Shown: positions 25,167 through 61,635, counted from the first letter of the stretch. The stretch: 64,000 bases of DNA from Candidatus Acidiferrales bacterium (GCA_035533875.1 DATLSZ010000001.1:3614-67613); one strand, 5' to 3'. The notes: generated by a model not told the origin, from the sequence alone. Numbers and translations are program-made.

Positions 25167-25195
25167 TTGACGTCTCTGCACTTTTGGCGCATGAT
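25167..25195 (+). promoter_or_regulatory. sigma70-type promoter of split transketolase operon
   Basis: TTGACG-17 nt-CATGAT; in-frame GTG 25203 lies 7 nt after the -10. Confidence 0.45.
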
Positions 25196-26066
25196 TAAAA
25201 TAGTGCTGGAAGAATTACACGAAGACAAATTAATAGACCTCGAAAAAAAGGCAGAAGAAGCCCGAGAGCTGATCATAAAATCGCTTCTTGAAGCAGGATC
25301 GGGACATTCAGCAGGTCCGCTTGGCATGGCGGATATCTTTACTGCGTTTTATTTTCATATTCTCAAACACGATCCCAAAAATCCCGATTGGCCTGAGCGC
25401 GACCGGCTGGTACTTTCCAACGGCCATATCTGCCCGATCCGCTATGTTTCAATGGCGCAGGCAGGCTACTTCCCTATTGAGGAATTGAAAACGTTACGGA
25501 AAATAAACTCAAGATTGCAAGGTCATCCGCACCGGACCGCTTTACCGGGACTCGAAACGACTTCCGGACCGCTCGGCGAAGGACTCGGACAGGCAATCGG
25601 CATCGCACTTGCAGCCAAACTTGATAAAAAAAACTATTATACCTATGTCATCACCGGTGATGGAGAGCTGGACGAAGGCAATATCTGGGAATCAGTGATG
25701 TTTGCCGGCAAAAATAAAATGAACAATATCATCATGACTATCGACCGCAACAATATCCAAATCGACGGTTTCACCGAAAATGTCATGCCGCTTGAACCGT
25801 TGAAAGAAAAGTTTGAGGCATTTGGCTGGCACGTTCTTGAAGTTGACGGCAACAATATCAAAGCATATGTTACCGTGATCAAGGAAGCGCACGCGATTTA
25901 TGAGAAACCAACGGTGATCATCGCCCATACCATCCCGGGACAGGGTGTTGATTTTATGGAAAAGGATTTCCATTGGCATGGCAAGCCGCCGAATGCGGAA
26001 GAAGCAAAAAAAGCGCTTGATGAATTACGCACGCTCAAGGGACAGATTGAGAGTGAACACAAATAA
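25191..26066 (+). CDS. transketolase, N-terminal (TPP-binding) subunit of split enzyme
   Basis: GSGHSAGPLGMADI, GPLGEGLGQAIG, GDGELDEGNIWE. In-frame GTG 25203, 7 nt after CATGAT, is an alternative leaderless start. Confidence 0.9.
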   Translation: MIKIVLEELHEDKLIDLEKKAEEARELIIKSLLEAGSGHSAGPLGMADIFTAFYFHILKHDPKNPDWPERDRLVLSNGHICPIRYVSMAQAGYFPIEELKTLRKINSRLQGHPHRTALPGLETTSGPLGEGLGQAIGIALAAKLDKKNYYTYVITGDGELDEGNIWESVMFAGKNKMNNIIMTIDRNNIQIDGFTENVMPLEPLKEKFEAFGWHVLEVDGNNIKAYVTVIKEAHAIYEKPTVIIAHTIPGQGVDFMEKDFHWHGKPPNAEEAKKALDELRTLKGQIESEHK

Positions 26067-26073
26067 AATATAA

Positions 26074-26174
26074 GCGGGTGGCACGGGCGGAGGGCTCCCA
26101 GCAGCGCGCAGTTCGTTCGCAGCAAAGCAAGACTAGAATGAGCACTGATGGGAGGAGCCCGGGACAGGACCCGC
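26074..26174 (+). other. GC-rich structured spacer between split transketolase genes (candidate RNA element)
   Basis: Outer stem GCGGGT (26074-26079)/ACCCGC (26169-26174); inner stem GGGCTCC (26092-26098)/GGAGCCC (26154-26160). Composition is strikingly GC-richer than the flanks. Confidence 0.35.
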
Positions 26175-26189
26175 AAAAACTAAAAAATT

Positions 26190-27179
26190 ATGTTGAATCC
26201 TAACTTAAAACTAAATACCAAACTCTTCGACAAAGATGTCGCAACCGCGCCAACTCGGGAAGGTTTTGGCACGGGACTCGTGGCGCTGGGTGAAATCAAT
26301 CCGAGAGTCGTAGCATTGGCCGCGGACCTGACTGAGTCAACATACGCACATAAATTTGCTGAGAAATTCCCCGATAGATTTTTCCAAATTGGTATCGGCG
26401 AGCAGAATATGGCATCAATCGCAGCAGGGCTTGCGGAAAGTGGTAAAGTCGCTTTCATCTCTTCATACGCAACGTTCTCACCGGGCAAAAATTGGGAAAC
26501 GCTGAGAACCACCGCAGTCTACAACGAAGCAAATGTCAAAATTGCAGGCCATCACTCAGGCATCATGACCGGACCTGACGGCGCCACCCATCAGGCAACA
26601 GAGGACATCGCCATCACCCGCTGCTGGCCAAAGATGCATGTCTATGTCCCTTGCGATGCTATCGAAGCACGCAAAGCAACCATCGCGTCTGTTGATATCT
26701 CCACCCCAGTCTATCTCCGCTATACCAGAGATAAAACACCAGTCATTACTACCGAAGAGACGCCATTCAAAGTCGGCAAACTGCAAACGTTTTGGGTGAA
26801 CGAAAATCCCAAAGTCACCATCTTTGCGACCGGCTACATGCTGTATTATGCACTCGTTGCCGCAAAAGAATTGGAGGAAGAAAAAATCCCTGTCCTCGTC
26901 GTCAACGCAGCGACGATAAAACCGCTTGATGAAGAAGGAATTCTTAACGCAACTCGTGATTCACAAGCAGTTGTTACGGTCGAAGACCATCAAGTCGAAG
27001 GCGGTATGGGATCTGCTATTGCTGAACTACTTGCAAAGACCACTCCACTTCCGATAGAATTTATAGGGTTGCAAAATACATTTGCCGAGTCAGGCAAGCC
27101 TGCCGAGCTTGTCGAAAAATACGGCATGGGAGTGAAAGATATCAAACTGGCTGTAAAAAGAGTTATGAGAAGAAAGTAA
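26190..27179 (+). CDS. transketolase, C-terminal (pyrimidine-binding) subunit of split enzyme
   Basis: FQIGIGEQNMASIAAGLA, GPDGATHQATEDIA, VTVEDHQVEGGMGSA. Confidence 0.9.
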   Translation: MLNPNLKLNTKLFDKDVATAPTREGFGTGLVALGEINPRVVALAADLTESTYAHKFAEKFPDRFFQIGIGEQNMASIAAGLAESGKVAFISSYATFSPGKNWETLRTTAVYNEANVKIAGHHSGIMTGPDGATHQATEDIAITRCWPKMHVYVPCDAIEARKATIASVDISTPVYLRYTRDKTPVITTEETPFKVGKLQTFWVNENPKVTIFATGYMLYYALVAAKELEEEKIPVLVVNAATIKPLDEEGILNATRDSQAVVTVEDHQVEGGMGSAIAELLAKTTPLPIEFIGLQNTFAESGKPAELVEKYGMGVKDIKLAVKRVMRRK

Positions 27180-29553: not shown

Positions 29554-29685
29554 AGAAATAACTTCTGCAATCAGCGTAGAACTTTTGTCACTAAAAAGTC
29601 AAGTATTTAGATCAAAGACATTTTATGATAGTTGTACTCTCTTGCATTTCAGATAAAAACACTATACTATGGATTGATAAACGCT

Positions 29686-30732
29686 ATGGACACACAAGAT
29701 CTTGAAAAGACAGCCAAAGCAATGGTAGCATCCGGCAAGGGTCTTCTGGCAGCCGACGAAAGTGATAAGACCTGCCAAAAGCGGTTTGACAGTGTTGGTG
29801 TCGAATGCACGCAAGAGTCAAGGCGCGAATACCGTGGACTCCTCTTCACAACACCTGACGCCGAACAATTTTTAAGTGGTATTATTTTGTATGATGAAAC
29901 GTTTCATCAGGAAACTGACGATGGGCAGCCGTTTGGTGAATATCTCCAGTCAAAAGGCATCCTGCCGGGAATCAAAGTTGATAAAGGGCTTGTTGATCTT
30001 CCCGGATTTCCTGAGGAGAAAGTTTCTCAAGGTCTTGATGGACTGCCTGAGCGGATGGCAGAGTATGCCAAACTCGGCGCGAAATTTGCCAAATGGCGCT
30101 CGGTTATCACGATCGGCGATGGCATCCCCACTGATATATGCATTAAAGCCAACGCATACGTCTTAGCACGTTACGCACGCATCTGCCAGGATGTCGGGAT
30201 TGTTCCGATCGTTGAGCCGGAAGTACTCTTTGACGGCAAACATACCAGTGAACAATGCGAAGAAGTGATGGCAAAGACATTTGGTACGCTCTTTGAATAC
30301 ATGGAAGCATTTAGAGTCCACATGCCGGGAGCAGTTTTGAAAACAAGTATGGTGCTTCCCGGCAAAGAAAGCGGCGCAACGATTGAACACGATGAAGTTG
30401 CCGAACGGACCGTCAGAGTGCTGCATGACCATGTGCCACAAGACCTTGGCGGTGTGGTTTTCTTAAGCGGCGGACAGACCAGCAATGACGCGTTTATCAA
30501 TCTCAACCGCATTGCCAAAAAAGGTCCGCATCCATGGGGTGTCACCTTCTCTTTTTCACGAGCACTGCAGGATTCCGTACTCAAAGCCTGGGCGAAAGAT
30601 AGAAAAGATAAGAAAGGTACTCAGGATCTTTTCCGTCAGCAACTTGAATTCGTGGGAAATGCCAGCAAAGGAGAATTGGATGAATCTCAGCTCCACGGAG
30701 ATACCTTTGTCACCAAATCACAAGACCTCTGA
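29686..30732 (+). CDS. fba: fructose-bisphosphate aldolase, class I
   Basis: GKGLLAADES hallmark, GIKVDKG, Schiff-base region AVLKTSMV, FLSGGQ. Confidence 0.9.
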   Translation: MDTQDLEKTAKAMVASGKGLLAADESDKTCQKRFDSVGVECTQESRREYRGLLFTTPDAEQFLSGIILYDETFHQETDDGQPFGEYLQSKGILPGIKVDKGLVDLPGFPEEKVSQGLDGLPERMAEYAKLGAKFAKWRSVITIGDGIPTDICIKANAYVLARYARICQDVGIVPIVEPEVLFDGKHTSEQCEEVMAKTFGTLFEYMEAFRVHMPGAVLKTSMVLPGKESGATIEHDEVAERTVRVLHDHVPQDLGGVVFLSGGQTSNDAFINLNRIAKKGPHPWGVTFSFSRALQDSVLKAWAKDRKDKKGTQDLFRQQLEFVGNASKGELDESQLHGDTFVTKSQDL

Positions 30733-46287: not shown

Positions 46288-47286
46288 TTATTGAAATTTC
46301 CCAAAGAGGTATTGCGCGCGCTTTTTGTTATGTTCTGTCACATCAACAACAACAATTCCGCGGTCAAACTGCCCGTATATAACAACAGCAGACAATGGAG
46401 CAAGGAGTATCGCCGGAATCGCCAGTAAATCCTCCTCACCATTTACGGCTATCAGCTGCTCTGTGTGGTTTGTTAAATAATTGGAAATTGCTGCAAATAT
46501 CGTTTTCGCTGCTTTTTGAGTAATTGTCCCTGCGGGGTTTTCCGTTGTTCTGCGTGTCATTTCAGAAAATGAATTGGCACGTGTGGGCTCTAAATTCTGC
46601 CTGCGCGTCTTACCGTCGGTGATATTGATCTCCGCCAGTCTTCCTGCCTGCTGAGCGGACGCTGCCACAATATCGCCGACTGCGATCAAAATCGTACGCG
46701 GCTGAAGTAATGAAATAACTTCATGCATATCGGTATAGACCGGCCCGATCGGATGTCGCATCTCATCACGCGCTTCTTCGGGAAGAACATACACTTCCTG
46801 TCTTTCAAATAATTTGCTGTAGGACTTCCCTTCCCGGTCGATAAGTCCCTTGCGGATCCGCGCTGAAGAGATCATCTCACCGTCATCACCAAGAACAAAA
46901 GGAACTGTGATGATCTCTAAAGATTTAAAACCCCGTTTATCCCGTTCCTCATTTATTTTCAGCGCATTTGGCTTGGTGCTTTCGGTGACAAAGATCGCGT
47001 CAATAGAATCTGAATCGATACTCGTTCCGTAGATGTCATTGATCTGGATTATTTCTGAGCGATCGGTAAAACCATTGTCTGAAAGGAATTGTACAACAGC
47101 TTTTTCGCGGTCATTATATTCTTCAATAAGCAGCGCCAATTTTTTATTTTCATACAATTCCACAGTCGCGATACCGATAGTAACGTTCTCGGATTGTTCA
47201 AAAGCAGTTGTTAATAATTTTCGATGTCCGGCATGAAAGCGGTCAAACGTCCCGCCGACCACTGAGAGGTGAAATTGATACGACAT
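46288..47286 (-). CDS. fusion of archaeal-type phosphopantetheine adenylyltransferase and DUF359 (GTP-dependent dephospho-CoA kinase family)
   Basis: N-terminus VVGGTFDRFHAGHRKLL (cytidylyltransferase HxGH). C-terminal half VGDIVAAS...ITDGKTRR...NGEEDLLAIP...VIYGQFDRGIVVV matches DUF359. ATG 47286 lies 7 nt after TATACT. Confidence 0.75.
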   Translation of the reverse strand: MSYQFHLSVVGGTFDRFHAGHRKLLTTAFEQSENVTIGIATVELYENKKLALLIEEYNDREKAVVQFLSDNGFTDRSEIIQINDIYGTSIDSDSIDAIFVTESTKPNALKINEERDKRGFKSLEIITVPFVLGDDGEMISSARIRKGLIDREGKSYSKLFERQEVYVLPEEARDEMRHPIGPVYTDMHEVISLLQPRTILIAVGDIVAASAQQAGRLAEINITDGKTRRQNLEPTRANSFSEMTRRTTENPAGTITQKAAKTIFAAISNYLTNHTEQLIAVNGEEDLLAIPAILLAPLSAVVIYGQFDRGIVVVDVTEHNKKRAQYLFGKFQ

Positions 47287-47293
47287 ACACAAA

Positions 47294-47322
47294 AGTATAC
47301 TGTGCTGAGCCAAATTCCGCAA
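47294..47322 (-). promoter_or_regulatory. sigma70-type promoter, leaderless configuration (PPAT-DPCK fusion)
   Basis: TTGCGG-17 nt-TATACT, then 7 nt, then ATG 47286. Confidence 0.55.
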
Positions 47323-47523
47323 CGTTATGTTTTGAGAATAATGTGCTTAGTGATTTCTTATAAGCGAGGAAAAAGAATTTTCGCCAGGACGAATGCCTCT
47401 TTCACATAGACTAGCATTCTGATGGTGCTCGGAGAGCGGAGGTACAAATTAAACTAAAACTCTAAAGGCGGGTCCAAGAAAAAAATCATTCCGAGCGATA
47501 AATAAGTTTGATGCTTGATCAAA

Positions 47524-48204
47524 TCATTTCCCAAACCGTCTTTCTCTTCGCTCGTATTCCGCAAGCGCGTTGTCGAATTCTTTCTCATCAAAATCCGGCC
47601 AGAACGTATCGGTGAAATATAATTCGCTATAAACACTCTGCCATGGTAGATAACCGCTCAACCGTTGAGATCCACCGGTACGGATCACGAGATCCGGATC
47701 AGGCTGGTGCTTGGTGTATAAATACTGCGAAATCAATTCTTCCGTAATATCATTCTTATCGATCTTATCCGTAACAATTTGTTGCACGGCTTGCACGATC
47801 TCCTCCCTGCCTCCGTAGTTGAGCGCGATATTGACAGTGATCTTGGTATTGTCCTTGGATTCCTCAATAACCTTTGCTATCCCCTTTTGGATGTCTTCTG
47901 GAAAAGCTATAAGATTTCCCAGAACCTGGATCTTCCCGCCTTTTTTGATCAATTTTTTCAAGAGTCCTCCCCGCAGAGCAGTACGGAAAAGATCCATCAG
48001 ATAACCGACCTCTTTCTGATCCCTGCGCCAATTTTCCGTGGAGAACGCCCAGAACGTGATATACGGTATATCATGATCCTGCGCGCGCTGGACGATCTTT
48101 TCAATTTGCTGGTATCCTTTCCGATGTCCGGCAAAAGCCGGAAGTTTTTTCTCCCTCGCCCAGCGGCGATTTCCATCCATAATAAGAGCAATGTGATTTA
48201 TCAT
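47524..48204 (-). CDS. uppS: isoprenyl transferase (undecaprenyl diphosphate synthase)
   Basis: IALIMDGNRRWA, FSTENWRR, RTGGSQRLS(G/N). Confidence 0.95.
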   Translation of the reverse strand: MINHIALIMDGNRRWAREKKLPAFAGHRKGYQQIEKIVQRAQDHDIPYITFWAFSTENWRRDQKEVGYLMDLFRTALRGGLLKKLIKKGGKIQVLGNLIAFPEDIQKGIAKVIEESKDNTKITVNIALNYGGREEIVQAVQQIVTDKIDKNDITEELISQYLYTKHQPDPDLVIRTGGSQRLSGYLPWQSVYSELYFTDTFWPDFDEKEFDNALAEYERRERRFGK

Positions 48205-48292
48205 ATTAATCTAAAATCTCAAAAATCAAATGTCAAATCTACATCTCAAATATAAAATCTTTTAAAATTTTGAGATTTGCGATTTGAAATTG
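48205..48292 (-). repeat. tandem-unit hairpin element, family 2
   Basis: ATCTCAAA (48243-48250) pairs with TTTGAGAT (48270-48277), and TCAAATC (48232-48238) with GATTTGA (48281-48287). The sense strand ends GAGATTTTAGATTAAT-ATG of uppS. One arm encodes the idi C-terminal tail. Confidence 0.75.
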
Positions 48293-48804
48293 GAATTATT
48301 CTTTAATTCTTCCACTTGTTCCCTGCACCATTTCGAATACTTCCTCGGATTTTTCTTAATGCTTTTCTGAAACTCTTCCCAATCAACCCATTCATATTCC
48401 TCAACTTCTTCCGGATTTGGACGGGGTTCTTTTGACACTGTCGCGATATAGACCGGACAAATTTCGTTTTCAACTATACCATTCATCTTTGCAGTATAGC
48501 GGAAATTCGGCAGGATAAGTTTTATTTTTTTGGGTTGTAAACCGAGTTCAAGTTGCAATCTTCGCTGTATCGCATCTTCGGTCTTTTCACCCGGCCCAGG
48601 ATGTCCACAACAGCTGTTGGTCCATATTCCCGGAAACACTTTTTTACTCAGTGCCCTTTGGGTCAGGAGAAACTTGCCCTCTTTATTAAATACATACACC
48701 GAAAAAGCCCGATGCAGCGGCGTATGCGCAGTATGTGCTTCAAGCTTCGGCATCGTACCGATTTCTTCATTGTTATCATTCACGAGTACAACCAATTCTT
48801 CCAT
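48262..48804 (-). CDS. idi: isopentenyl-diphosphate delta-isomerase, type 1 (Nudix)
   Basis: HRAFSVYVFN, WTNSCCGHP, ENEICPVY. The last ~10 codons are encoded by the hairpin repeat. Confidence 0.9.
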   Translation of the reverse strand: MEELVVLVNDNNEEIGTMPKLEAHTAHTPLHRAFSVYVFNKEGKFLLTQRALSKKVFPGIWTNSCCGHPGPGEKTEDAIQRRLQLELGLQPKKIKLILPNFRYTAKMNGIVENEICPVYIATVSKEPRPNPEEVEEYEWVDWEEFQKSIKKNPRKYSKWCREQVEELKNNSNFKSQISKF

Positions 48805-48805
48805 A

Positions 48806-49783
48806 TTAAAATAAATGCTTTTTTATCAAATGTGCGCCCTTACTCGGATAATTAATAATCGTGTTTTGTACTTCCTCCATTTCTGAAAGCTTCTTTACAA
48901 CTTTTTTCGCATTCTTTTTTTCACAAATAATATGGACGTCTTGTCCAGTATTGAGAGTAAAATAAACTTCCAACCCTTCTTGCCGCCATTTTTTTACCAG
49001 ATGTAACAAACGCAAACTCGCTGGCAATAAATAGATAAGTGAAGGTTGAGATGTAAGATAAATCGCATGTAATTCAAGTGCCTCAGCTTCTATAACGTTT
49101 CCAAAAGCGGTGAAATTTTTTTCTTTTATATATCGCTTAACCAGACGCATTTTTTCTTTATTAAGTTGCAATCTTCTGTCAAAAAATAGACTCGTTGTTG
49201 CAAGTTTATGTCCCTCTGTAGAACTGATTTCTTTTTTATTGGTACTGACAACCGCAACAACGTCGATAATATCCCAATGATCTTTTGGGTATAACGAAAC
49301 AGCATATGAAGTCTCACTCGTATCGCCATCAAGCCACTCAACAAATCCGTCGGGAATTGATCTGCAAGCAGAACCTGAACCCTGTCTTGCCAGAATCGAT
49401 AATTCTTTTTCTGAAAGTTTCAAACCCGCCGCTGCGGCAGCAGCAACTGTTAATGCTGCAAATCCAGACGCAGAAGATGAAAGACCCGTTGAAGTAGGAA
49501 AATTATTTTTAGAAATAACTTTTGCTTTATACTGTATTTTTGTTAAAGAACGTATTCTATCCAAATGCTTAATGACTCTATTCCCTTCGATTATTTCTTG
49601 AACATTATTAACGGTAATGCTATCTTGATAAAAATCTGAATTAAATTCAACCGTTGTTGTCGTAAGAAGATTACTTAAATTCATTGAAATACTCCCGTTT
49701 TTAGGAAGTCGTAAAACCTCATCTTTGACTCCCCAATATTTGATAAACGCGATATTTGATGGTGCGACTGCTGTAGCTTTCAT
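48806..49783 (-). CDS. mvaD: diphosphomevalonate decarboxylase
   Basis: NIAFIKYWG, GLSSSASGFAAL, GSGSACRS. Confidence 0.9.
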   Translation of the reverse strand: MKATAVAPSNIAFIKYWGVKDEVLRLPKNGSISMNLSNLLTTTTVEFNSDFYQDSITVNNVQEIIEGNRVIKHLDRIRSLTKIQYKAKVISKNNFPTSTGLSSSASGFAALTVAAAAAAGLKLSEKELSILARQGSGSACRSIPDGFVEWLDGDTSETSYAVSLYPKDHWDIIDVVAVVSTNKKEISSTEGHKLATTSLFFDRRLQLNKEKMRLVKRYIKEKNFTAFGNVIEAEALELHAIYLTSQPSLIYLLPASLRLLHLVKKWRQEGLEVYFTLNTGQDVHIICEKKNAKKVVKKLSEMEEVQNTIINYPSKGAHLIKKHLF

Positions 49784-49785
49784 AG

Positions 49786-50769
49786 TTATTGTAAACTCTT
49801 TTCTACACGGACTCCTTCCGCATTTGTCTTGACAGCAATCACTTCACCACCGGCAACAGTAATTGCTTTTTCAACATCCTTTTTCTTTTCTCTTAGCGCA
49901 AGTGCAATCATGCAGTCTCCTCCGCCGGCGCCTGACAATTTTGCACCGTATGCTCCTGCACTTCGCGCGGCATAATTCATCGCCGCCAATGTCTCGGTCT
50001 CTACGCCATAAGCGCTCAATAATCCTTCATTGATATTCATCAACTCACCAAACTTCTCAAAATCTCCAGCGATTAATGCTTTCTTTCCTGTCTCAACACA
50101 TGTCGTACTGACGTCAAAAAGAACAGGATAAATTTTGGGATATTCTTTTAACTTTGCTCCTACCATCTTGACGAGTGTCGGTGTATCACCTTTGCTCCCG
50201 CTATATCCAACAATGAGCGGAAAATTCGCAACAGAAATAGGGGTAATTACTTTTCCTCCACCAACAAAATATAAAATACCTCCATAAATTCCCGCAGCGA
50301 TATCAAACCCGGACCCAACACCTTGAATATCTATAACTGTTTTGTATGCAAGATTAAATAACGATTTGTTATCCAATTTACTCCCGGTTAACTCTGAAAG
50401 AGCTTTCACCATACAGACTGTCGATGCAGATGAAGATCCGAAACCTACTTGTGAAGAAAACGCTGATGACGTCTCGACTCGCAAGCCGCCTTTGAATTGG
50501 TATTTTTTCAGAAAATTTTTAACAGCTATCTCGACAAATTTCGCACCTTTCGGGATCTCTCCTTTACCGAGATCCTTCAAACTTTTTTTATACCCAATCA
50601 CCTTTACACCGGGCGCCTCCAACTGCAATTCCGGGACATCCAAACGGGTAACAGTCGCTTCCATCCGCTGATCAACTGCGGTCACGAGACACGGTCTGTT
50701 ATGCACAACAGCATGATCCCCCAAAAGCATCAATTTCCCCGGTGCTGATACAGTTATTTTTTTCATCAA
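49786..50769 (-). CDS. GHMP kinase, probable phosphomevalonate kinase
   Basis: SAPGKLMLLGDHAVV, GFGSSSAS, KLSGAGGGDC. The second GHMP kinase in a mevalonate operon that lacks an isopentenyl-phosphate kinase. Confidence 0.65.
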   Translation of the reverse strand: MMKKITVSAPGKLMLLGDHAVVHNRPCLVTAVDQRMEATVTRLDVPELQLEAPGVKVIGYKKSLKDLGKGEIPKGAKFVEIAVKNFLKKYQFKGGLRVETSSAFSSQVGFGSSSASTVCMVKALSELTGSKLDNKSLFNLAYKTVIDIQGVGSGFDIAAGIYGGILYFVGGGKVITPISVANFPLIVGYSGSKGDTPTLVKMVGAKLKEYPKIYPVLFDVSTTCVETGKKALIAGDFEKFGELMNINEGLLSAYGVETETLAAMNYAARSAGAYGAKLSGAGGGDCMIALALREKKKDVEKAITVAGGEVIAVKTNAEGVRVEKSLQ

Positions 50770-51806
50770 TTTAACATCACTCCTTCACTTCCCAGCATAA
50801 TATCATACAATGGGTTTTTATTTAATAATAAACTTTTTTTCAGTTTTTCTTTCTCAGGATGATAGACAAGAAGCATTCCTGATCCTTTTTTCCTTCCTCC
50901 TGCACCACAGATCTTTGCAGCCCCTCCTTCTTTTTCAATCAGTGCAATGAGCGATTTTGCCGAATCCGAAACAACGCCTATTTTTTCGAGATTTCGCTCT
51001 CCTCTTTTGATTAGATCCATAAGATTCTCTTCATTACTGTTTTGTAAAACCGAAACCAAATCTCGGGTTACTTGTTCCTGATCAGAAAGAAACTGCGCAA
51101 ACATGCTCCTGTTCTCTTTTTGCAATCTCCCGACAAGACTTACCATTTCACCGGTAGTTTCAGTTGGTCTGCCGCTGTCTATCAATAAAAAATTTGCCTT
51201 TGATTGTAACAATTTTTTGGTAAAAGATTTATTTTGAAAAAGCCCAATGCCTCCATAACAACAAATGGTATTATCTCCTCCTGAAGGGTTTCCATGGATT
51301 CGCTGTTCGATTCGAAAAGCGATGGTGTTAACCGTTTCTTTATCAATCTTTTTCGTAACAAACTGCATTACAGCTGCAACAATAGCTACCGATAGTGCTG
51401 CCGAAGAACCGAGCCCTGATCCGATAGGGATCGCTGAATTGATTATAAGATCAAACTCGGATGGTAGTCTTTTTTGTAAAAAAGCGATCGTTTCTCCTAT
51501 TGCAATTGCAGGCAAATCTACACTATGTAACGTCAATAATGAGCTGTCGTTATTCTTTTGAAATGCATCCCATTTTTTCTCCGCCTCTTTGGTAAGAGCA
51601 ATAATTTCATTGGGAGAATATGTCATTTTTTTATTGAGATTTTCTGAGGTGATAGTGATAGTGTCACTATCTGAAGAGATCAACTGTACAGAGCATCGCA
51701 TGTTAATCGCTGCGAGAAGAGCCGGTTTGCCGTAGACCACCGCATGCTCACCCATCAAATGAATTTTTCCCGGGGCAGAAACAGTTATGCTATTCTGCTT
51801 TTTCAT
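50766..51806 (-). CDS. mvk: mevalonate kinase (GHMP family)
   Basis: SAPGKIHLMGEHAVVYGKPALLAAI, GSGLGSSAA, KICGAGG. Overlaps both neighbours by 4 nt. Confidence 0.75.
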   Translation of the reverse strand: MKKQNSITVSAPGKIHLMGEHAVVYGKPALLAAINMRCSVQLISSDSDTITITSENLNKKMTYSPNEIIALTKEAEKKWDAFQKNNDSSLLTLHSVDLPAIAIGETIAFLQKRLPSEFDLIINSAIPIGSGLGSSAALSVAIVAAVMQFVTKKIDKETVNTIAFRIEQRIHGNPSGGDNTICCYGGIGLFQNKSFTKKLLQSKANFLLIDSGRPTETTGEMVSLVGRLQKENRSMFAQFLSDQEQVTRDLVSVLQNSNEENLMDLIKRGERNLEKIGVVSDSAKSLIALIEKEGGAAKICGAGGRKKGSGMLLVYHPEKEKLKKSLLLNKNPLYDIMLGSEGVMLN

Positions 51807-52102
51807 ACCGGTTTTACTTTTACGCCATACGTGATTATATCTTCTTTACCGGGAAATCCGACTCGACGTATGACAGTAATTACTTTTTGACCGACCGTTA
51901 ATTGCTCTTCATCGTAATCAACCAGCTGGAGTGTTCTCTTTTCTTTATCATCAAATGCAACTATTGCTACGACATAGGGAACTTGCTGTTGGAATCCTGC
52001 CGGTGCAACATAAATTCTCGTCCAGACCACTATTTTTCCAACTCTTCCAAGTTCTTTATGTAATTCTTTTGTTTTTCTCCAAGATGCAATTGTATTTGTC
52101 AT
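51803..52102 (-). CDS. DUF35-like OB-fold protein lacking the zinc ribbon
   Basis: 99 aa, position between thiolase and kinase, OB-like core VPYVVAIVAFDD...QKVITV; contains no cysteine. Confidence 0.6.
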   Translation of the reverse strand: MTNTIASWRKTKELHKELGRVGKIVVWTRIYVAPAGFQQQVPYVVAIVAFDDKEKRTLQLVDYDEEQLTVGQKVITVIRRVGFPGKEDIITYGVKVKPV

Positions 52103-52106
52103 AAAT

Positions 52107-53246
52107 TTAAACCTTTAATATATGGACGACTGCAGTCGCTCCGGTTCCACCGATATTCTGCGTCAGACCGACCTTTGCTTTCGTAACTTGTTTCTTCCCA
52201 CCGCGACCAAGCAATTGATCATAAATCTCAACCAATTGTTTGACTCCTGTAGCTCCAACCGGATGGCCGCATGCCTTCAGACCGCCTGATGTATTCACCG
52301 GCTTTTTTCCGCCAAGTCGTGTCGCCCCGCTGGCAACATATGCTCCGCCTTCACCTTTTTTGCAGAATCCCAGATCTTCCATCGCCAGTAATTCGGCAAT
52401 CGTGAAACAATCATGCACTTCCATAATGTCTATATCTTTTGGTGATACTCCTGCAAGAGAAAACGCTTTTTTCGCTGCATTTTTTGTCGCAGCAAGTTCG
52501 GTCAGACTTGCCCGGTCGGAAATAGCAATGGTATCGGTGACAACCGTGCTTGCGATAATTGAGACTTTCTTCTTTGATGAACTTTTTTTGGCAGTCAATA
52601 CGAGTGCCGCCGCGCCGTCTGTTATCGGTGACGAATCAAGAAGGGTGAACGGATCGGTCACTTTGGAACTATTCAAAACTTTTTCAATGGATACTTCAAA
52701 AGGAAATTGCGCTTTACTATTGAGACTTGCATGATAATGATTCTTTACCGCGACGTGTGCCATATGTTCCCGCGTCGTACCAAACTCCTGCATGTGTGCT
52801 TTCGCAAGTAGCGCATAGAGCGCCGGAAATGTCAGACCTGCTTCTCGCTCTTCTTCAGATCCTGCACGCATGAGAAGCGAGCTGATTTCCTCCGGCGGAA
52901 AATCCGTCATCTTTTCGACACCTACAACAAGAACTGTTTCATAGGTACCGGCAAGAAGTGATTGAATTGCCAGATGCACTGCCAGTCCACCGGATGCGCA
53001 TGCGCCTTCGATCTTAAATGCACTTTTATTAATCCCCAGTGCCGATGTAACTGCCGCGCCCAAATGTTCTTGTCTCTGCAAGGTGCCGGAAAGCATATTG
53101 CCGACAAAAACTCCTTCAATATCTTTCAGAGAAACAGCAGCATCTTTTATGGCTTCAGATGCGGCATCGGTCGCAAGATCGATAAGTGTTTTTGTCCAAT
53201 GTTCACCAAATTTTGTTACCGCAGCGCCTGCTATGTGTACATTCAT
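52107..53246 (-). CDS. thiolase (archaeal-type acetyl-CoA acetyltransferase)
   Basis: Active-site EGACASGG, VHDCF, GGLKACGHPVGATG. Confidence 0.85.
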   Translation of the reverse strand: MNVHIAGAAVTKFGEHWTKTLIDLATDAASEAIKDAAVSLKDIEGVFVGNMLSGTLQRQEHLGAAVTSALGINKSAFKIEGACASGGLAVHLAIQSLLAGTYETVLVVGVEKMTDFPPEEISSLLMRAGSEEEREAGLTFPALYALLAKAHMQEFGTTREHMAHVAVKNHYHASLNSKAQFPFEVSIEKVLNSSKVTDPFTLLDSSPITDGAAALVLTAKKSSSKKKVSIIASTVVTDTIAISDRASLTELAATKNAAKKAFSLAGVSPKDIDIMEVHDCFTIAELLAMEDLGFCKKGEGGAYVASGATRLGGKKPVNTSGGLKACGHPVGATGVKQLVEIYDQLLGRGGKKQVTKAKVGLTQNIGGTGATAVVHILKV

Positions 53247-54274
53247 AATTTTTTGGTTTTCTTCAAATATTCCAGATATCCAATTTCCTTTTTCTTCGTT
53301 ATTAATTCGGAGACCGGAACTCCGTTTCTTTTTGCGATATGGCTGGTCGTTTCAAAGATAAATCCGTCGGATCCGGCGCCCGATCCGTATGACACAAAAA
53401 AGATTTTCTGATGAGGCTTTGCGATATCGAGAACCGCTGCCAAACCAAGCAGTGCTGCCGCGGTATACGGATTGCCGATCTTATCAACAGTCAATGAAGG
53501 CTTGAGTTGTTCATCAGTGAACCCGAGCTTTTTTGCAGCAACACGGGGGAATTTTCCGTTTGGCATATGGATCACACAATAATCAAAATCGTTGGGTGAC
53601 AAACCGCTCTGTTGTAAAAGCTTCTTCCCTTCAGAGATGACATGATGGAAATATGCAGGCTCGCCGGTGAAGCGTCCCGCGTGTGAAGGATATTTTGCGC
53701 CGTCTCTCCGCCAGAAATCGGGGGTATCAGAGGTGAATGAAGACATGGATAAAATTTTTGCGATTATCTTATCGGTATCACTTCCCAAAATGTAGGATGC
53801 CGCTGCGCTTCCTGCGGTAAATTCCAGTATGTCTCTTGGCTTTGCCTGTGCGGTATCCGCGCCAATCACCATTCCGTATTTGATTTTTTTACTATCAACA
53901 AGACCAGCAGTCATACCCATCCCAGCAGTCGCTGCCTTGCAGGCAAATTCCAAATCAGCCGCGAAATAATCAGTACCGACTCCAAGAATCTCAGCAATTG
54001 TTGAAGATGTCGGATTGACCGCGTATGGATGGCTTTCAGACCCGACAAAAACACTTTGGATTGCCGATGCGTGCAACTTTGCTTTTTGCAACGCAGCAAA
54101 ACTTGCCTCAACGCCCATGCTTACCGCGTCTTCGTCATAATTGGGAACTGCTTTTTCCTCTATATGCAGAGCAGTCATGATCTCGGCCGGATTTTTATCC
54201 CACGCGAGTGCGATCTCTTCCAATCGTATTCTGTATCGGGGAACATATACCCCGTATGAAACTATACCTGACAT
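53243..54274 (-). CDS. hydroxymethylglutaryl-CoA synthase (archaeal-type)
   Basis: GSESHPYAVNPT, EFACKAATAG (catalytic Cys), HMPNGKFP, SYGSGAGSD. Confidence 0.85.
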   Translation of the reverse strand: MSGIVSYGVYVPRYRIRLEEIALAWDKNPAEIMTALHIEEKAVPNYDEDAVSMGVEASFAALQKAKLHASAIQSVFVGSESHPYAVNPTSSTIAEILGVGTDYFAADLEFACKAATAGMGMTAGLVDSKKIKYGMVIGADTAQAKPRDILEFTAGSAAASYILGSDTDKIIAKILSMSSFTSDTPDFWRRDGAKYPSHAGRFTGEPAYFHHVISEGKKLLQQSGLSPNDFDYCVIHMPNGKFPRVAAKKLGFTDEQLKPSLTVDKIGNPYTAAALLGLAAVLDIAKPHQKIFFVSYGSGAGSDGFIFETTSHIAKRNGVPVSELITKKKEIGYLEYLKKTKKL

Positions 54275-54349
54275 AAAATTTGGATTTAAGATTTAAGAAA
54301 TAAGATTTAAGATTTTTTACTCTTTAATCCTAAATCTTTAATCGTAAAT
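54275..54349 (-). repeat. tandem-unit hairpin element, family 3 (GATTTAAGA/TCTTAAATC words)
   Basis: GGATTTAAGATTTAAGAAATAAGATTTAAGATT-TTTTA-CTCTTTAATCCTAAATCTTTAATCGTAAATC; fills the HMGR-stop to HMGS-start spacer. Confidence 0.7.
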
Positions 54350-55495
54350 CTACTTTTCTCCTCTTCCCAACTCTTTGTGCGCTCGTCCCAAACTTCCCTG
54401 TGCAAGGCTTGCCAACAGAGAAAGCTCACCAGCTAGAACAGCCCCACCGATAATTTCTGCGAACGTTCCAACGTTATTTTCACCCTCAACTCCAAGAATC
54501 TCTAATGCTTCTTTCTGCGTTGCCAACCCGGTTCCTCCTCCTACAGTTCCGACAATAAGCGCTGGTAAATAAATAGAAACATACAGATCTCCCTTTGGCA
54601 ATACTTTCGTCGTTGTTATCCCCATGCTACCCTCAACGACATGCGCCGGATCCTGACCTGTTGCGATAAAAAGTGCCGCGATAATATTTGCATAATGCGC
54701 GTTAAAGCCCATCGAACCGCTCATCGCTGATCCAATCATACACTTCCCTAGCCATACATCAAACATCTCCTCAGCAGTTGTCTTAAGAACTGAATGTAAA
54801 ATATCTTTTTGCAAAACAGTTTCTGCCCAGACAACAAACCCTCTATTATTAATAAAATTCAGCCAGGACGGTTTTTTATCAACATCAAAATTCCCGGCAA
54901 CCGAAAGACACTTCGCACCGGTCTCTTCCTCAATTACCTGCGCCATCGCTTCTGATGCGATCGTCACCATATTCATCCCCATCGCATCGGCGGTATCAAA
55001 AGCAAACCGCACAAAAAGATACTGTCCAACCTCACGCACCAGTACGTTTTCCATGTGCAGATGACGGGAAGTTTTTTCCGCAGTCTCTGCTAATCTTTTT
55101 TTGTTTTTTTCAATCCAAAGACGCGCCGCCTGTCGTTCTTTCGACGATGAAACAACAAAAACCGGTCCGCGAGTTTGTCCTTCACGACGGGAACTAACAA
55201 ATGCACCGCCTGATACATTTATCGCTTTACAGCCGCGCGCAACAGATGCGATAAGTGCTCCTTCTGTTGTTGCCAACGGCAGATAAAAATCACCGTGAGC
55301 AAATCCGCCAGAAACTGCAATTGGCCCGGCAATTCCCATAGGAACCTGTGCAGCGCCGATCATATTCTCGCAATTTTTTGTCGATGCAGCCTGTTCATCG
55401 AATGTATATTTTCCAATATTGTTTAGACTAAGCCCCAATTCATGCTCTACTGCAGCCCTTCGCTCGGCAGCAGTCTTATATGTTCTCACGTTCAT
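54350..55495 (-). CDS. hydroxymethylglutaryl-CoA reductase, class I, soluble
   Basis: ENMIGAAQVPMGIAGP, TTEGALIASVARGCKA, DAMGMNMV, GTVGGGT. Confidence 0.9.
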   Translation of the reverse strand: MNVRTYKTAAERRAAVEHELGLSLNNIGKYTFDEQAASTKNCENMIGAAQVPMGIAGPIAVSGGFAHGDFYLPLATTEGALIASVARGCKAINVSGGAFVSSRREGQTRGPVFVVSSSKERQAARLWIEKNKKRLAETAEKTSRHLHMENVLVREVGQYLFVRFAFDTADAMGMNMVTIASEAMAQVIEEETGAKCLSVAGNFDVDKKPSWLNFINNRGFVVWAETVLQKDILHSVLKTTAEEMFDVWLGKCMIGSAMSGSMGFNAHYANIIAALFIATGQDPAHVVEGSMGITTTKVLPKGDLYVSIYLPALIVGTVGGGTGLATQKEALEILGVEGENNVGTFAEIIGGAVLAGELSLLASLAQGSLGRAHKELGRGEK

Positions 55496-55527
55496 ACTAT
55501 AGTAGGTAATTACTAAGTCGTATTTTT

Positions 55528-55557
55528 TTGCTAAATCATTCGTTTTTGTTATATAAT
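55528..55557 (+). promoter_or_regulatory. sigma70-type promoter, leaderless configuration (ECF sigma gene)
   Basis: TTGCTA-18 nt-TATAAT; ATG 55566 lies 8 nt after the -10. Confidence 0.6.
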
Positions 55558-55565
55558 CAGACCAT

Positions 55566-56096
55566 ATGCATATTGTTGAGAAAATCCTCCAAGGCGACGC
55601 CCATGCAGTAGAGACATTCTATCAGCAATACTCACCCGGCATCCTCAGATATTTAAAAAGCAAGCTGCCCAAAACAGAAGACGCGCAGGAAATTCTCAAT
55701 GATGTATTCCTCGATGCAGTTGACGGACTGCCGTCGCTTAACAAACAAACAAGCGTCAAATCTTGGATCTATCAAATCGCGCATTATAAAATAGTGAACT
55801 TTTACCGCAAACAGAAAATTAAATCCCTCATTTTCTCACAATTTCCCTACCTGAAAATTGTTGATGAGGAAGTACATCAACCGGAATTCCAGCTGGAAAA
55901 AGAAGAATTAAAAATGAGATTGCAAATGGCACTTGAGAAACTCTCCCAGAAGTATCAGCAAATACTCCGCATGCATTACATCGAAGAATTGCCGGTCAAG
56001 ATTATTTCACTGCAATTAAACCTGTCATTCAAGGCAACCGAATCACGTCTCTACCGGGCCAGAATGCAGTTTATAAAAAATTATAACCTTATGTAA
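55566..56096 (+). CDS. ECF-type RNA polymerase sigma factor
   Basis: Region 2 (DAQEILNDVFLD, SWIYQIAHYKIVNFYR) and region 4 HTH (LRMHYIEELPVKIISLQLNLSFKATESRLYRAR). Confidence 0.85.
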   Translation: MHIVEKILQGDAHAVETFYQQYSPGILRYLKSKLPKTEDAQEILNDVFLDAVDGLPSLNKQTSVKSWIYQIAHYKIVNFYRKQKIKSLIFSQFPYLKIVDEEVHQPEFQLEKEELKMRLQMALEKLSQKYQQILRMHYIEELPVKIISLQLNLSFKATESRLYRARMQFIKNYNLM

Positions 56097-58940: not shown

Positions 58941-58978
58941 CATCTTTCTCTTTAATCTTGATTCTTCAATCTTAAATC
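58938..58978 (-). repeat. half element, family 3 words only (no partner arm)
   Basis: CTTTAATCTTGATTCTTCAATCTTAAATC directly after the recR stop, followed in sense by a TGATAGTAT promoter. Confidence 0.5.
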
Positions 58979-59687: not shown

Positions 59688-60656
59688 TTATGCGTGCAGT
59701 TCTTTGCTTATCATCTCCGCAACAGATAGTACGTGTAATTTTGGAAAATACTTTTCCTCCGAGATAAACACCGTATCGGTGACATACACGCGGTCAATGC
59801 TGGATTCCTGCAATAGCTCCGGTGCCTCTTCGGAAAAGACGGCATGAGTTGCAAAAACATCACATGAGACAACACCGTTGTCTTTCAGAAGCTGCGCCGA
59901 CTGCACAACTGTATTGCCGCTTGAGACCATATCATCTACTATAAGTGCCCGTTTGCCGGGGAGATCTGAAGGATTGAGTGGCCCTTCAAATTGTTTTATA
60001 GTAATATCCCCTGTCCGTAAATCCCGATCTTTTACCGTTGCTATCCACGGAATGCCACTGAGCATTTCAGACATCTGCTCGATCCGTCTCAGTCCTCCCA
60101 TATCGGGTGAAACAAGGATTGTGTCTTTTAGGAAGTCATCAGGATTATTGCTATCAACAAGTGTATTAAACGCTTTACTCTGTATCCGCTCTGCAAAAAG
60201 AGGAAGTGCTGAAAGATGTGTTATCGGAATATGAAACAATTCCGGAATTTTGATGGAGTGCAGATCAAGAGCTATCACTTTGTCAACTTTCAATGATTCC
60301 AAAAATCGGATCATCACATCAAGAGAAACTACTTCTCCTTCACGAAAAACATGATCCTGCCGCTGATACCCAAGATATGGGATGACGGCAGTTACTGATT
60401 TTGCACCATTTCGCCTCAATGCATCGATGATAAAAAAGAGCTCAATGTAATTCTGGTCCACAGGTGTATTGGTCGATTGGATAACAACAGTGTTTTCTTC
60501 AAGAACATTGGCATTGAGCTTGATCCGCCGTTCTCCGTCAGGAAAAATCATGGTCTCAATCGGAGATAGTTTTGTCGTAAGGTCCTTTGCAATTGCTTCT
60601 GCGAGCGGCTTGTTGGAAGAGCCTGAAAAAAGTTTCATGAAGCTATTGTACCACAC
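59688..60656 (-). CDS. prs: ribose-phosphate pyrophosphokinase paralog (divergent copy)
   Basis: FPDGERRIK, AVIPYLGYQRQD, ALIVDDMVSSGNTV. GTG 60656 lies 1 nt after the upstream stop; ATG 60638 is an alternative start. Confidence 0.85.
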   Translation of the reverse strand: MWYNSFMKLFSGSSNKPLAEAIAKDLTTKLSPIETMIFPDGERRIKLNANVLEENTVVIQSTNTPVDQNYIELFFIIDALRRNGAKSVTAVIPYLGYQRQDHVFREGEVVSLDVMIRFLESLKVDKVIALDLHSIKIPELFHIPITHLSALPLFAERIQSKAFNTLVDSNNPDDFLKDTILVSPDMGGLRRIEQMSEMLSGIPWIATVKDRDLRTGDITIKQFEGPLNPSDLPGKRALIVDDMVSSGNTVVQSAQLLKDNGVVSCDVFATHAVFSEEAPELLQESSIDRVYVTDTVFISEEKYFPKLHVLSVAEMISKELHA

Positions 60657-60657
60657 A

Positions 60658-61635
60658 TCACAATATTAGAGCCTGACTGATAGATTCACCGGTTCTTATT
60701 CTGCGGATTGCTTCTGCCAGAAGCGGAGCAACAGTAACAACAGAGATTTTTTTGTTATTCAAAACTTCCTCTCTGGGTTTTATAGAATCAGTGATGATCA
60801 TCTCTTCAATAGTTGATTCATTGATTTTTTTCAACGCATCTCCTGAAAATAATCCATGCGTCGCGGCAACACGCACGCTCCTAGCACCTTTTTCTTTTAT
60901 GAAATTTGCCGCATGGACTATCGTACCGGCAGTATCAATCATGTCATCAACCAACAACACATCTTTGTCTTTTACATTACCAATGATATTTACTGTCTCT
61001 GAAACATTGTTCACTTCCAAATCCCGCTCTTTATAGGCAATTGCTATTCCTTCCGCTTGCAGTAATTTTGCATAACCGGCAGCCCGCAAAAAACCACCCT
61101 TATCAGGTGAAGCAACTACGAGATTGTGCATATTACGTTCTTTAAGTGCCGGTAATAACGAGTAGCTGCCGTAGACATTGTCCCATGGCTGCTTGATCGA
61201 TCCTTCCATTTGTTCTGAATGGATATCAAGCGTCAATATCCGATCAATTCCTGCATTGACCAAAAGTGAAGCAACAGCTGATGCGCTGATTGGGACACGG
61301 GACATTTCTTTTCTATCCTGACGGGAATAACCAAAATACGGGATAACCGCAGTAACTTCAGACGCATTCGCACGACGTGCAGCATCAGCCATAAGAGCAA
61401 GTTCCATGATATGATCATTTACCGGGATAGAGGTAGATTGTATGAGGAATACATTTCTGCGGCGTAAATTTGGCTTGATCCGGACTCGGATCTCTCCGTC
61501 GGAAAAAATACTGATCGGACAGGTAACTTCTACCTTCAGTATTTTAGCAATTGATTCCGCGAGCGGAGGATTGGCACGGCCCGCTAACAGAATAAATTCA
61601 TCAGATTCCATAGCTGTATTTGTTTGTCCGATCAT
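60658..61635 (-). CDS. prs: ribose-phosphate pyrophosphokinase (canonical copy)
   Basis: FSDGEIRVR, AVIPYFGYSRQDRK, VLLVDDMIDTAGTI. Confidence 0.95.
   Translation of the reverse strand: MIGQTNTAMESDEFILLAGRANPPLAESIAKILKVEVTCPISIFSDGEIRVRIKPNLRRRNVFLIQSTSIPVNDHIMELALMADAARRANASEVTAVIPYFGYSRQDRKEMSRVPISASAVASLLVNAGIDRILTLDIHSEQMEGSIKQPWDNVYGSYSLLPALKERNMHNLVVASPDKGGFLRAAGYAKLLQAEGIAIAYKERDLEVNNVSETVNIIGNVKDKDVLLVDDMIDTAGTIVHAANFIKEKGARSVRVAATHGLFSGDALKKINESTIEEMIITDSIKPREEVLNNKKISVVTVAPLLAEAIRRIRTGESISQALIL

Follow-up and report, generated by a model that had tools for sequence, protein, structure and literature searches.

Introduction

Several described systems resemble the operon analysed here, a set of nine mevalonate and isoprenoid biosynthesis genes on the minus strand of a 64,000-nucleotide stretch of metagenomic DNA (GCA_035533875.1, DATLSZ010000001.1:3614-67613; hereafter the window, or 64-kb window, with positions counted from its first letter). 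The most similar is the gene cluster of the Microgenomates, tiny uncultured bacteria of the Candidate Phyla Radiation (CPR), for which a mevalonate gene set with CPR clades close to archaea was reported, typically syntenic with a cis-isoprenyl diphosphate synthase (cis-IPPS) gene (Hoshino & Gaucher, 2018; PMC6107057). The same analysis argued for descent from a common ancestor instead of transfer, described the methylerythritol phosphate (MEP) pathway as sparse in CPR bacteria and noted isopentenyl phosphate kinase (IPK) homologues in Microgenomates (PMC6107057). That cluster and the present one share archaeal-type acetoacetyl-CoA thiolase (AACT) and HMG-CoA synthase (HMGS), a class I HMG-CoA reductase (HMGR), two kinases resembling mevalonate kinase (MVK) or phosphomevalonate kinase (PMVK), a diphosphomevalonate-type decarboxylase, a type I isopentenyl diphosphate isomerase (Idi-1) and clustering with a cis-prenyltransferase, and their sequences fall into the same CPR clades.

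Other systems bear on parts of the locus. In Methanothermococcus thermolithotrophicus, thiolase, HMGS and a DUF35 protein form a channelling complex (PDB 6ESQ/6ET9), and all characterised DUF35 scaffolds, namely the archaeal protein, PhlB and MucC, carry a zinc ribbon (PMC12960953). Chloroflexi combine one kinase and an IPK with a phosphomevalonate decarboxylase (PMD), known from Anaerolinea thermophila (6N0X) and as the Roseiflexus MPD (Dellas et al, 2013). The Gram-positive operons (mvaK1-mvaD-mvaK2, mvaS, mvaA) encode a class II HMGR, a bacterial-type HMGS, thiolase II, no DUF35 protein and usually Idi-2, in contrast to the locus described here. Finally, the archaeal dephospho-CoA kinase (DPCK) was discovered through fusions of phosphopantetheine adenylyltransferase (PPAT) with an arCOG04076 domain in uncultured archaea (Shimosaka et al, 2019; PMC6650551).

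We are fairly confident that the window carries a mevalonate operon of the Microgenomates/Levybacteria type on the contig of such a CPR bacterium, inherited and shuffled within the CPR and not acquired from an archaeon.

Results

Conservation and phylogenetic position of the operon

Comparison loci were collected by a genome scan with an HMGS profile, and the best 80 of at least 600 matches were taken. Within this sample the nearest loci came from CPR bacteria, with HMGS identities of 68% for Levybacteria and 54-55% for Daviesbacteria and Gottesmanbacteria, followed by DPANN archaea (52-54%) and by other archaea or FCB-group bacteria (48-53%). When the fetched loci were searched by tblastn with the window proteins, the order HMGR-HMGS-AACT-DUF35 was found in all 46 CPR-type loci, and in those that were long enough DUF35 was followed by two GHMP kinases and the decarboxylase, L019, L027 and L104 being among the few that differ. 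A UppS gene was present in 28 of the 33 CPR-type loci holding a decarboxylase; Idi-1 directly after the decarboxylase, as seen here, is rare (4/25 loci). Archaeal loci share HMGS-AACT-DUF35 only. The initial annotation had considered a complete mevalonate route leading into undecaprenyl diphosphate synthesis to be uncommon in bacteria, but these counts and the published description (PMC6107057) make it the standard cluster of CPR Microgenomates.

In neighbour-joining (NJ) trees with 200 bootstraps, the window sequence fell into a CPR-type clan of 17 members for HMGS (99.5% bootstrap) and of 16 members for thiolase (89%), and in both trees the CPR clan stood apart from all 50-65 archaeal and FCB-group sequences. 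The phylogenetic check proposed at the outset therefore placed HMGS and thiolase neither in Firmicutes-type clades nor among the archaea, but in a CPR clan of their own. Inside this clan HMGS groups with Levybacteria-type and thiolase with Daviesbacteria-type sequences, a mismatch of partners that points to shuffling within the CPR. HMGR was compared by tblastn and not by a tree, and showed 51-64% identity to the HMGRs of CPR-type loci.

These data bear directly on a recent acquisition of the operon from an archaeon by this bacterium or its recent ancestors, which we consider very improbable. It is true that HMGR, HMGS, thiolase, DUF35 and the PPAT/DPCK fusion score far better with archaeal models and structures (see below), and that DPANN archaea are the next-nearest group. 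However, the window is nested deep inside a well-supported CPR clan, archaeal loci lack the late genes and the linkage to cis-IPPS, which are specific to the CPR, and the published analysis came to the same verdict (PMC6107057). Nor is there a compositional anomaly, as the GC content of the operon (0.39-0.46) matches that of the rest of the window (about 42% throughout), and synteny of the flanks extends across CPR relatives. The inter-domain transfer put forward in the initial annotation, taken as an event in this organism, finds no support in the CPR clans, the flanks or the GC content. Any archaeal transfer would at most date to the base of the CPR or before it.

Two further groups of loci were noted in the course of the comparison. 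In the DPANN archaeon Candidatus Iainarchaeum (L016, 9279-10898), HMGS-AACT-DUF35 is followed by a CPR-like order of kinases, decarboxylase and isomerase, including a 539-aa fusion of an Idi-like NUDIX domain with a GHMP kinase and a canonical K/I/R/M/D decarboxylase (see below for these positions). Six loci from Ignavibacteria, Melioribacter, Bacteroidota and Stahlbacteria (L038, L051, L064, L067, L076 and L077) encode an archaeal-type HMGS that branches in the tree as a clade among the archaeal sequences and not with the CPR; AACT lies beside it where the contig extends, and L064 also has a zinc-ribbon DUF35.

Identity of the host

The host is a bacterium, because the window encodes a sigma-70 factor of the extracytoplasmic function (ECF) type, RecR, DnaX, a class A penicillin-binding protein (PBP) and CysS, which were identified with Pfam together with two phosphoribosyl pyrophosphate (PRPP) synthetases. 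Neither Rfam, used at gathering thresholds, nor a scan for tRNAs gave a match in the window. Among HMGS homologues with names given by primary submitters, the nearest are assigned to Levybacteria, Levyibacteriota or Patescibacteria, and the nearest CysS relatives from primary submitters (65-69% identity) bear the same Levybacteria and Patescibacteria names. Moreover, the block S21-YbeY-DnaX-YbaB-Prs-Prs-RecR-hypothetical-CysS-sigma-operon is syntenic in the sister species L085 and L086 and in L167, a co-occurring relative from the same samples, and the housekeeping proteins CysS, RecR, Prs and DnaX are 67-97% identical to their counterparts there. An HMGS identical to that of the window is present on soil and other metagenome contigs.

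The NCBI third party annotation (TPA) records for the identical HMGS (HVA96071.1) and kinase A name the source as 'Candidatus Acidoferrales bacterium' (Acidobacteriota). Taken at face value, this label would mean that the contig is truly acidobacterial and that its genome captured a CPR operon. We find this extremely improbable, since the four housekeeping proteins lie in the same order in L085, L086 and L167, all of which hold the operon, the CysS neighbours from primary submitters point to Levybacteria/Patescibacteria and GC content is even across the window. In addition, the labels of metagenome-assembled genomes (MAGs) among TPA records are unreliable, because those on CysS sequences 68-85% identical to ours span four unrelated taxa, including Saccharimonadales, Sulfotelmatobacter and Limnocylindrales. 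Given the names of the HMGS and CysS neighbours, the inconsistent TPA labels and the syntenic block, the Acidoferrales label is very probably wrong. The names of the CysS and HMGS neighbours and the housekeeping synteny indicate that the host is very probably a CPR, Levybacteria-like bacterium. The two PRPP synthetases of the block are tandem ribose-phosphate pyrophosphokinase paralogues of 322 and 325 aa (59688-61635, minus strand) that are kept in L085 and L086.

Early enzymes and the DUF35 protein

The early enzymes are clearly separated from their Gram-positive counterparts. HMGR scored 438 bits with the class I model TIGR00533 versus 57 bits with the class II model TIGR00532, and its best PDB match was the archaeal 6HR7 (354 bits); the motifs ENMIG, DAMGMN and GTVGGG are all present. 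HMGS scored 431 bits with the archaeal TIGR00748 versus 121 bits with the bacterial TIGR01835, and 369 bits with 6ESQ_I from Methanothermococcus versus about 73 bits with the Enterococcus and Staphylococcus enzymes; its catalytic tetrad E80/C112/H236/N268 is intact. For thiolase we obtained 303 bits with 6ESQ_A, and the catalytic residues C83, H278-D-C-F and C326-G-H-P are kept. These three pairs of HMGR and HMGS scores distinguish the locus from the Gram-positive operons, with which it has in common the membership of all three late enzymes in the GHMP family and, if the diphosphate route applies, the formal chemistry. The archaeal flavour that the initial annotation attributed to the operon holds for the first four proteins and the PPAT/DPCK fusion, which are archaeal-type and not Firmicutes-type.

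HMGS, thiolase and DUF35 occur in the same order as in archaeal loci, including that of the Methanothermococcus complex, just as first annotated, and the components of that complex are the closest solved relatives of all three proteins. The DUF35 protein aligns through residues 10-99 with residues 39-128 of 6ESQ_E (E=6e-12, 49 bits), in an alignment that skips residues ~19-38. It belongs to the DUF35 family, as had been suggested, but represents the OB domain only: an N-terminal WR helix motif is joined to an OB fold, with neither a zinc ribbon nor a CxxC motif. In contrast to the Methanothermococcus protein, it thus lacks the rubredoxin-like zinc ribbon and has a deletion of ~20-30 residues where the N-terminal helix joins the OB fold. 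The same architecture was found in all 58 CPR-type DUF35 proteins, which are ~100 aa long, keep the WR helix motif and have no CxxC or zinc ribbon, whereas archaeal DUF35 proteins (median length 133 aa) carry at least one CxxC in 29 of 32 cases and two in 27 of 32. We therefore propose that the CPR protein is a minimal variant of the scaffold family. By analogy it is the presumed scaffold of a putative thiolase/HMGS complex, which would differ from the Methanothermococcus complex in its bacterial host.

HMGS/thiolase/DUF35 trios have also been repurposed as C-acyltransferases in bacteria, in complexes such as PhlABC and MucABC (PMC12960953), and PhlA, PhlB and PhlC are detectable homologues of the proteins described here. 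For the trio of the window we give such a function practically no credence. The E-C-H-N tetrad and the HDxF motif, which are lost in the repurposed enzymes, are intact, and the presence of these catalytic residues argues against an acyltransferase of the PhlABC/MucABC kind. Scores with the archaeal complex are two to three times those with the Phl proteins, and the genes lie between HMGR and the mevalonate kinases.

The two GHMP kinases

Both kinases scored above the NCBIfam mevalonate-kinase cutoff, and their strong PDB matches are MVKs only. Kinase B additionally matched PRK03926 at 228 bits (below cutoff), gave a weak match to the ERG8-type TIGR01219, and scored 136 bits with the Methanosarcina mazei MVK (6MDE); it is 81-91% identical to the versions of close relatives. 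A tree was built from 102 kinases whose loci include a decarboxylase, and in it the A and B types split at 92-93% bootstrap. The sole kinases of loci with one kinase and a decarboxylase fell into the A clade in 9/9 cases, and eight of these nine loci carry an IPK. Because kinase A is orthologous to the sole kinase of IPK-carrying loci, it is likely to be the mevalonate kinase, and kinase B likely to be the extra, PMVK-like enzyme. The conservation of kinase B argues that its product is still needed. The opposite assignment, kinase B as the mevalonate kinase on account of its best PDB matches to archaeal MVKs, was dropped, as the tree of sole kinases points to A.

Compared with L167, the operon proteins are 88-97% identical, except for kinase A, which is only 50% identical. 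Nucleotide similarity to L167 vanishes in the core of the kinase A gene (51694 to 51022), whereas both gene ends align and, like the neighbouring genes, show 85-90% DNA identity. Since the kinase A of L167 groups with those of L085 and L086 (76-77%), it is the core in the window that appears to have been replaced. Kinase A thus looks like a chimera whose core came from a distant CPR allele by allelic replacement. The relative nearest to this core is 60-63% identical. A metagenome scan with kinase A alone yielded no relatives and a profile scan none above 48% identity; a large protein search recovered one relative at 60%, on a 1.4-kb contig. We also considered whether kinase A and the decarboxylase had diverged together in a functional switch. 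This was rejected, as L167 has the ancestral type of kinase A beside the same V/H/N decarboxylase (91% identical).

Some other loci show alterations around the kinases. A Levybacteria locus (L005, 13591-14433) and a Gottesmanbacteria locus (L024, 13426-14238) have an additional gene between the two GHMP kinases; it was examined as a candidate IPK, which was ruled out, as both inserts encode UbiE-like SAM-dependent methyltransferases. In L085 (14725-15705), gene calling breaks kinase B into fragments of 234 and 84 aa, as a result of a frameshift or else of misassembly, and an extra gene of 355 aa that matches no family is inserted upstream of it.

Substrate specificity of the decarboxylase

The best PDB match of the decarboxylase was the Anaerolinea PMD 6N0X (302 bits), compared with 204 bits for the mevalonate diphosphate decarboxylase (MDD) of S. 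aureus. We examined the specificity positions 21, 27, 193, 196 and 283 (S. epidermidis numbering). Comparison of 6N0X with its engineered variant 6N0Z pointed to YWGN to YWGK and STQGH to STQGM as the engineered changes, and the introduction of Lys21 and Met196 reportedly converts PMD into MDD. At the five positions the canonical MDD has K/I/R/M/D, the Anaerolinea PMD N/R/T/H/D and the window enzyme V/R/T/H/N. Hence the classical Lys21, Arg193, Met196 and Asp283 are absent, being replaced by Val, Thr, His and Asn, and positions 21, 27, 193 and 196 are of PMD type; a non-basic residue 21, Arg27, Thr193 and His196 are all shared with the Chloroflexi enzymes. Most two-kinase CPR loci have K/R at position 21, mostly R at 27, T/S at 193, M/Q/H at 196 and D/N at 283. 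Full-length decarboxylases of IPK-linked loci are mostly non-basic at position 21 and have A/I/N at 27, R/I/L/T at 193, always H at 196 and D at 283.

The replacement of the catalytic Asp283 by Asn (FTLNTGQD) is a further difference from the Chloroflexi PMDs. It is seen here and in about half of the CPR homologues, usually together with Gln, His or Met at 196, and Asn at this position is compatible with activity in the Saccharolobus enzyme (PMC9254496).

This signature raises the question of a PMD route, in which the decarboxylase would act on mevalonate 5-phosphate to give isopentenyl phosphate, and an IPK encoded elsewhere, or one of the GHMP kinases, would produce isopentenyl diphosphate (IPP). 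We regard this as unlikely, although several observations favour it. Besides the closer match among solved proteins, V21/R27/T193/H196 fits PMD and not MDD, His196 is shared by all eight full-length decarboxylases from IPK-linked loci, and nearly all two-kinase loci have a basic residue 21, the exceptions being the lineage of the window (including L167) and L101. The same positions and region underlie Table 4 of Dellas et al (PMC3857490), and Microgenomates do have IPK homologues, as mentioned above. However, neither tblastn with the M. jannaschii IPK (query verified against 3K4O) nor Pfam searches of all larger open reading frames (ORFs) detected an IPK in the 64-kb window. Instead of the IPK and single GHMP kinase that go with the PMD route in Chloroflexi, the locus retains two kinases, of which kinase B is clearly conserved. 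The same gene set goes with K21/M196 in the sister species L085 and L086. In addition, R27 and T/S193 are common to most CPR decarboxylases whatever the kinase content, and may be traits of the clade and not markers of specificity. In the window/L167 lineage, the decarboxylase resembles that of Levybacteria-type loci (72-75%) more than that of L085/L086 (66-69%).

A variant of this scenario is that the decarboxylase of this lineage, having lost Lys21 and Met196, switched to mevalonate 5-phosphate and that a GHMP kinase phosphorylates isopentenyl phosphate, with no IPK of the amino-acid-kinase fold being involved. We hold this to be decidedly improbable; if true, it would reveal an isopentenyl phosphate kinase from the GHMP family and add a fourth way of arranging the late mevalonate steps. 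The conservation of kinase B and the K21/M196 state of the sister species speak for the classical order of the late steps, which is favoured here.

Layout of the locus

Genes and families were assigned from an ORF listing, Pfam and NCBIfam profiles and PDB sequence matches (Table 1). The nine-gene set of the initial annotation was recovered in full, with all ORFs, coordinates and family assignments upheld, and so was the CoA-biosynthesis fusion, which starts 237 nt past UppS. The several 4-nt overlaps reported between genes came down to two ATGA junctions, HMGS/thiolase and DUF35/kinase A. At the third, kinase A/kinase B, the overlap is 1 nt (TGATG), or 4 nt if a TTG start is used. The remaining junctions are spacers of 1-4 nt, save for 75 nt between HMGR and HMGS and 57 nt between Idi and UppS. 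Promoter-like sites (19 in the region versus 20.7 in shuffles) and terminator-like sites (10 versus 9.9) occurred at chance level, and so give no backing to the separate promoter that the initial annotation assigned to the CoA gene.

Table 1. Features of the mevalonate locus and its immediate neighbours (positions in the window).
Feature	Position	Strand	Description	Supporting match or method
Class I HMGR	54350-55495	-	381 aa, soluble catalytic domain only	PF00368 411 bits
HMGS, archaeal/CPR-type	53243-54274	-	343 aa	NF003274 470 bits, TIGR00748 431 bits
AACT, archaeal-type	52107-53246	-	379 aa	NF004720 479 bits
DUF35 OB-fold protein	51803-52102	-	99 aa	PF01796 46 bits
GHMP kinase A	50766-51806	-	346 aa	TIGR00549 199 bits, above cutoff
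GHMP kinase B	49786-50766	-	326 aa from ATG	TIGR00549 184 bits
Mevalonate 5-(di)phosphate decarboxylase	48806-49783	-	325 aa	TIGR01240 277 bits
Idi type 1	48262-48804	-	180 aa	NF002995 249 bits, TIGR02150 160 bits
UppS-type cis-prenyltransferase	47524-48204	-	226 aa	PF01255 279 bits, TIGR00055 261 bits
PPAT/DUF359 fusion	46288-47286	-	332 aa	PF01467 + PF04019; NF001985 154 bits; NF041125 94 bits
ECF-type sigma-70 factor	55566-56096	+		Pfam Sigma70_r2/r4_2; TIGR02937 90 bits
HMGR-HMGS spacer	54275-54349	-	GATTTAA heptad repeats, long imperfect hairpin	Tandem Repeats Finder (TRF), RNA folding

The HMGR-HMGS spacer shows a period of 7/14 in TRF, has inverted arms of 37 nt and is predicted to fold as RNA with a minimum free energy of -21.3 kcal/mol (z = -4.9). 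It is absent from L167, L085 and L086, where HMGR and HMGS abut. The Idi-UppS spacer likewise consists of heptad repeats according to TRF. More generally, AT-rich 7-nt repeats (GATTTAA/TCTTAAA) form the spacers at 54275-54349, 48214-48258 and 58949-58978, and a 16-mer pattern of the heptad repeat has 13 occurrences in the window when up to 3 mismatches are allowed, versus 1.7 expected.

The sigma factor gene is divergent from the operon and shares with it a 70-nt intergenic region (55496-55565). Of 39 CPR-type loci, 27 have an ECF-type homologue, in one orientation or the other, no more than 1.5 kb upstream of HMGR, and this recurrence suggests a conserved regulatory link to the mevalonate operon.

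Idi-1 contains the motifs NSCCGHP and ENEICP. UppS, located 600 nt downstream of the decarboxylase, contains DGNRRWA. In the 344-aa ORF that results from a TTG start, the downstream fusion has PF01467 at residues 21-158 and PF04019 at residues 219-343, and it carries the motif GGTFDRFHAGH. The two domains and their order are those of the PPAT-arCOG04076 fusions of uncultured archaea, the second belonging to the family of the GTP-dependent DPCK of T. kodakarensis (PMC6650551), but the present fusion is encoded by a CPR bacterium. Matches at E<=1e-30 to this PPAT-DUF359 fusion comprise 724 representatives of 50% clusters, and nearly all of the best 150 are full-length fusions. Among the loci compared, the fusion gene adjoins the mevalonate operon only in the clade of the window, so that its position is probably incidental, that of a neighbour and not of a conserved part of the operon. 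CoA is a cofactor of the mevalonate route's three initial steps.

Discussion

The gene content suggests the following pathway. The archaeal-type thiolase and HMGS would condense three acetyl-CoA to HMG-CoA, with the short DUF35 protein probably holding the two enzymes together, as suggested by its homology to the Methanothermococcus complex, and the class I HMGR would reduce HMG-CoA to mevalonate. GHMP kinase A would most likely form mevalonate 5-phosphate and kinase B mevalonate 5-diphosphate, from which the decarboxylase would generate IPP, to be isomerised to dimethylallyl diphosphate by Idi-1. UppS would then extend a farnesyl diphosphate primer to undecaprenyl diphosphate, the lipid carrier for wall synthesis. 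The trans-prenyltransferase needed for the primer was not found in the window, which does encode the class A PBP mentioned above.

We detected no MEP pathway gene in the 64-kb window; in this respect the absence anticipated by the initial annotation was seen within the window. A 612-aa thiamine-diphosphate enzyme (22472-24310) was considered as Dxs and discarded, as it scored 890 bits as a transketolase versus 189 bits, below cutoff, as Dxs. This transketolase lies near a split transketolase (299 + 329 aa, 25167-27179) and a class I fructose-bisphosphate aldolase (29632-30732), and none of these is Dxs.

A number of observations weigh against the interpretation of the locus as a CPR operon following the classical route in a CPR host. 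The closest characterised relative of the decarboxylase is a phosphomevalonate decarboxylase (6N0X), its Val for Lys21 and His for Met196 fall at precisely the positions altered in 6N0Z and correspond to the states of IPK-linked loci, and its catalytic Asp is Asn. Kinase B is closer to archaeal mevalonate kinases than to any solved phosphomevalonate kinase, and because of this resemblance the assignment of the two phosphorylation steps draws on orthology only. The DUF35 protein differs from all characterised scaffolds in having no zinc ribbon, and the complex is deduced by homology. The trees are NJ trees of a sample taken from the best 80 of at least 600 HMGS matches, the picture for the MEP pathway, IPK and farnesyl diphosphate synthase covers the 64-kb window, and the NCBI label of the source MAG is 'Candidatus Acidoferrales'.

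The CPR cluster and its link to a cis-prenyltransferase have been known since 2018, and the present locus is a further example. It departs from the published description in the decarboxylase without Lys21 and Met196 and with Asn at 283, in the apparently replaced core of kinase A, in the position of Idi-1 directly after the decarboxylase and in the PPAT/DPCK fusion as the next gene; DUF35 is not mentioned in that description (PMC6107057). To what was known, our analysis adds modest new points: a DUF35 protein that lacks the ribbon in all 58 CPR-type homologues, a decarboxylase with a mixed PMD/MDD signature, a kinase A that looks chimeric, an intercistronic hairpin and a MAG that is very probably mislabelled.

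The mislabelled MAG calls for caution with claims of horizontal transfer that are based on taxonomy. Natural decarboxylases that combine a mixed PMD/MDD signature with Asn in place of the catalytic Asp put the published substrate-specificity rules to the test, and a natural ribbon-less DUF35 protein would reveal which part of the scaffold is needed for channelling between thiolase and HMGS. The CPR operon has already been used in the debate on whether the mevalonate pathway goes back to the last common ancestor. What seemed to be an archaeal import is likely to be the normal isoprenoid route of a large bacterial radiation, one that would feed the lipid carrier of the cell wall.

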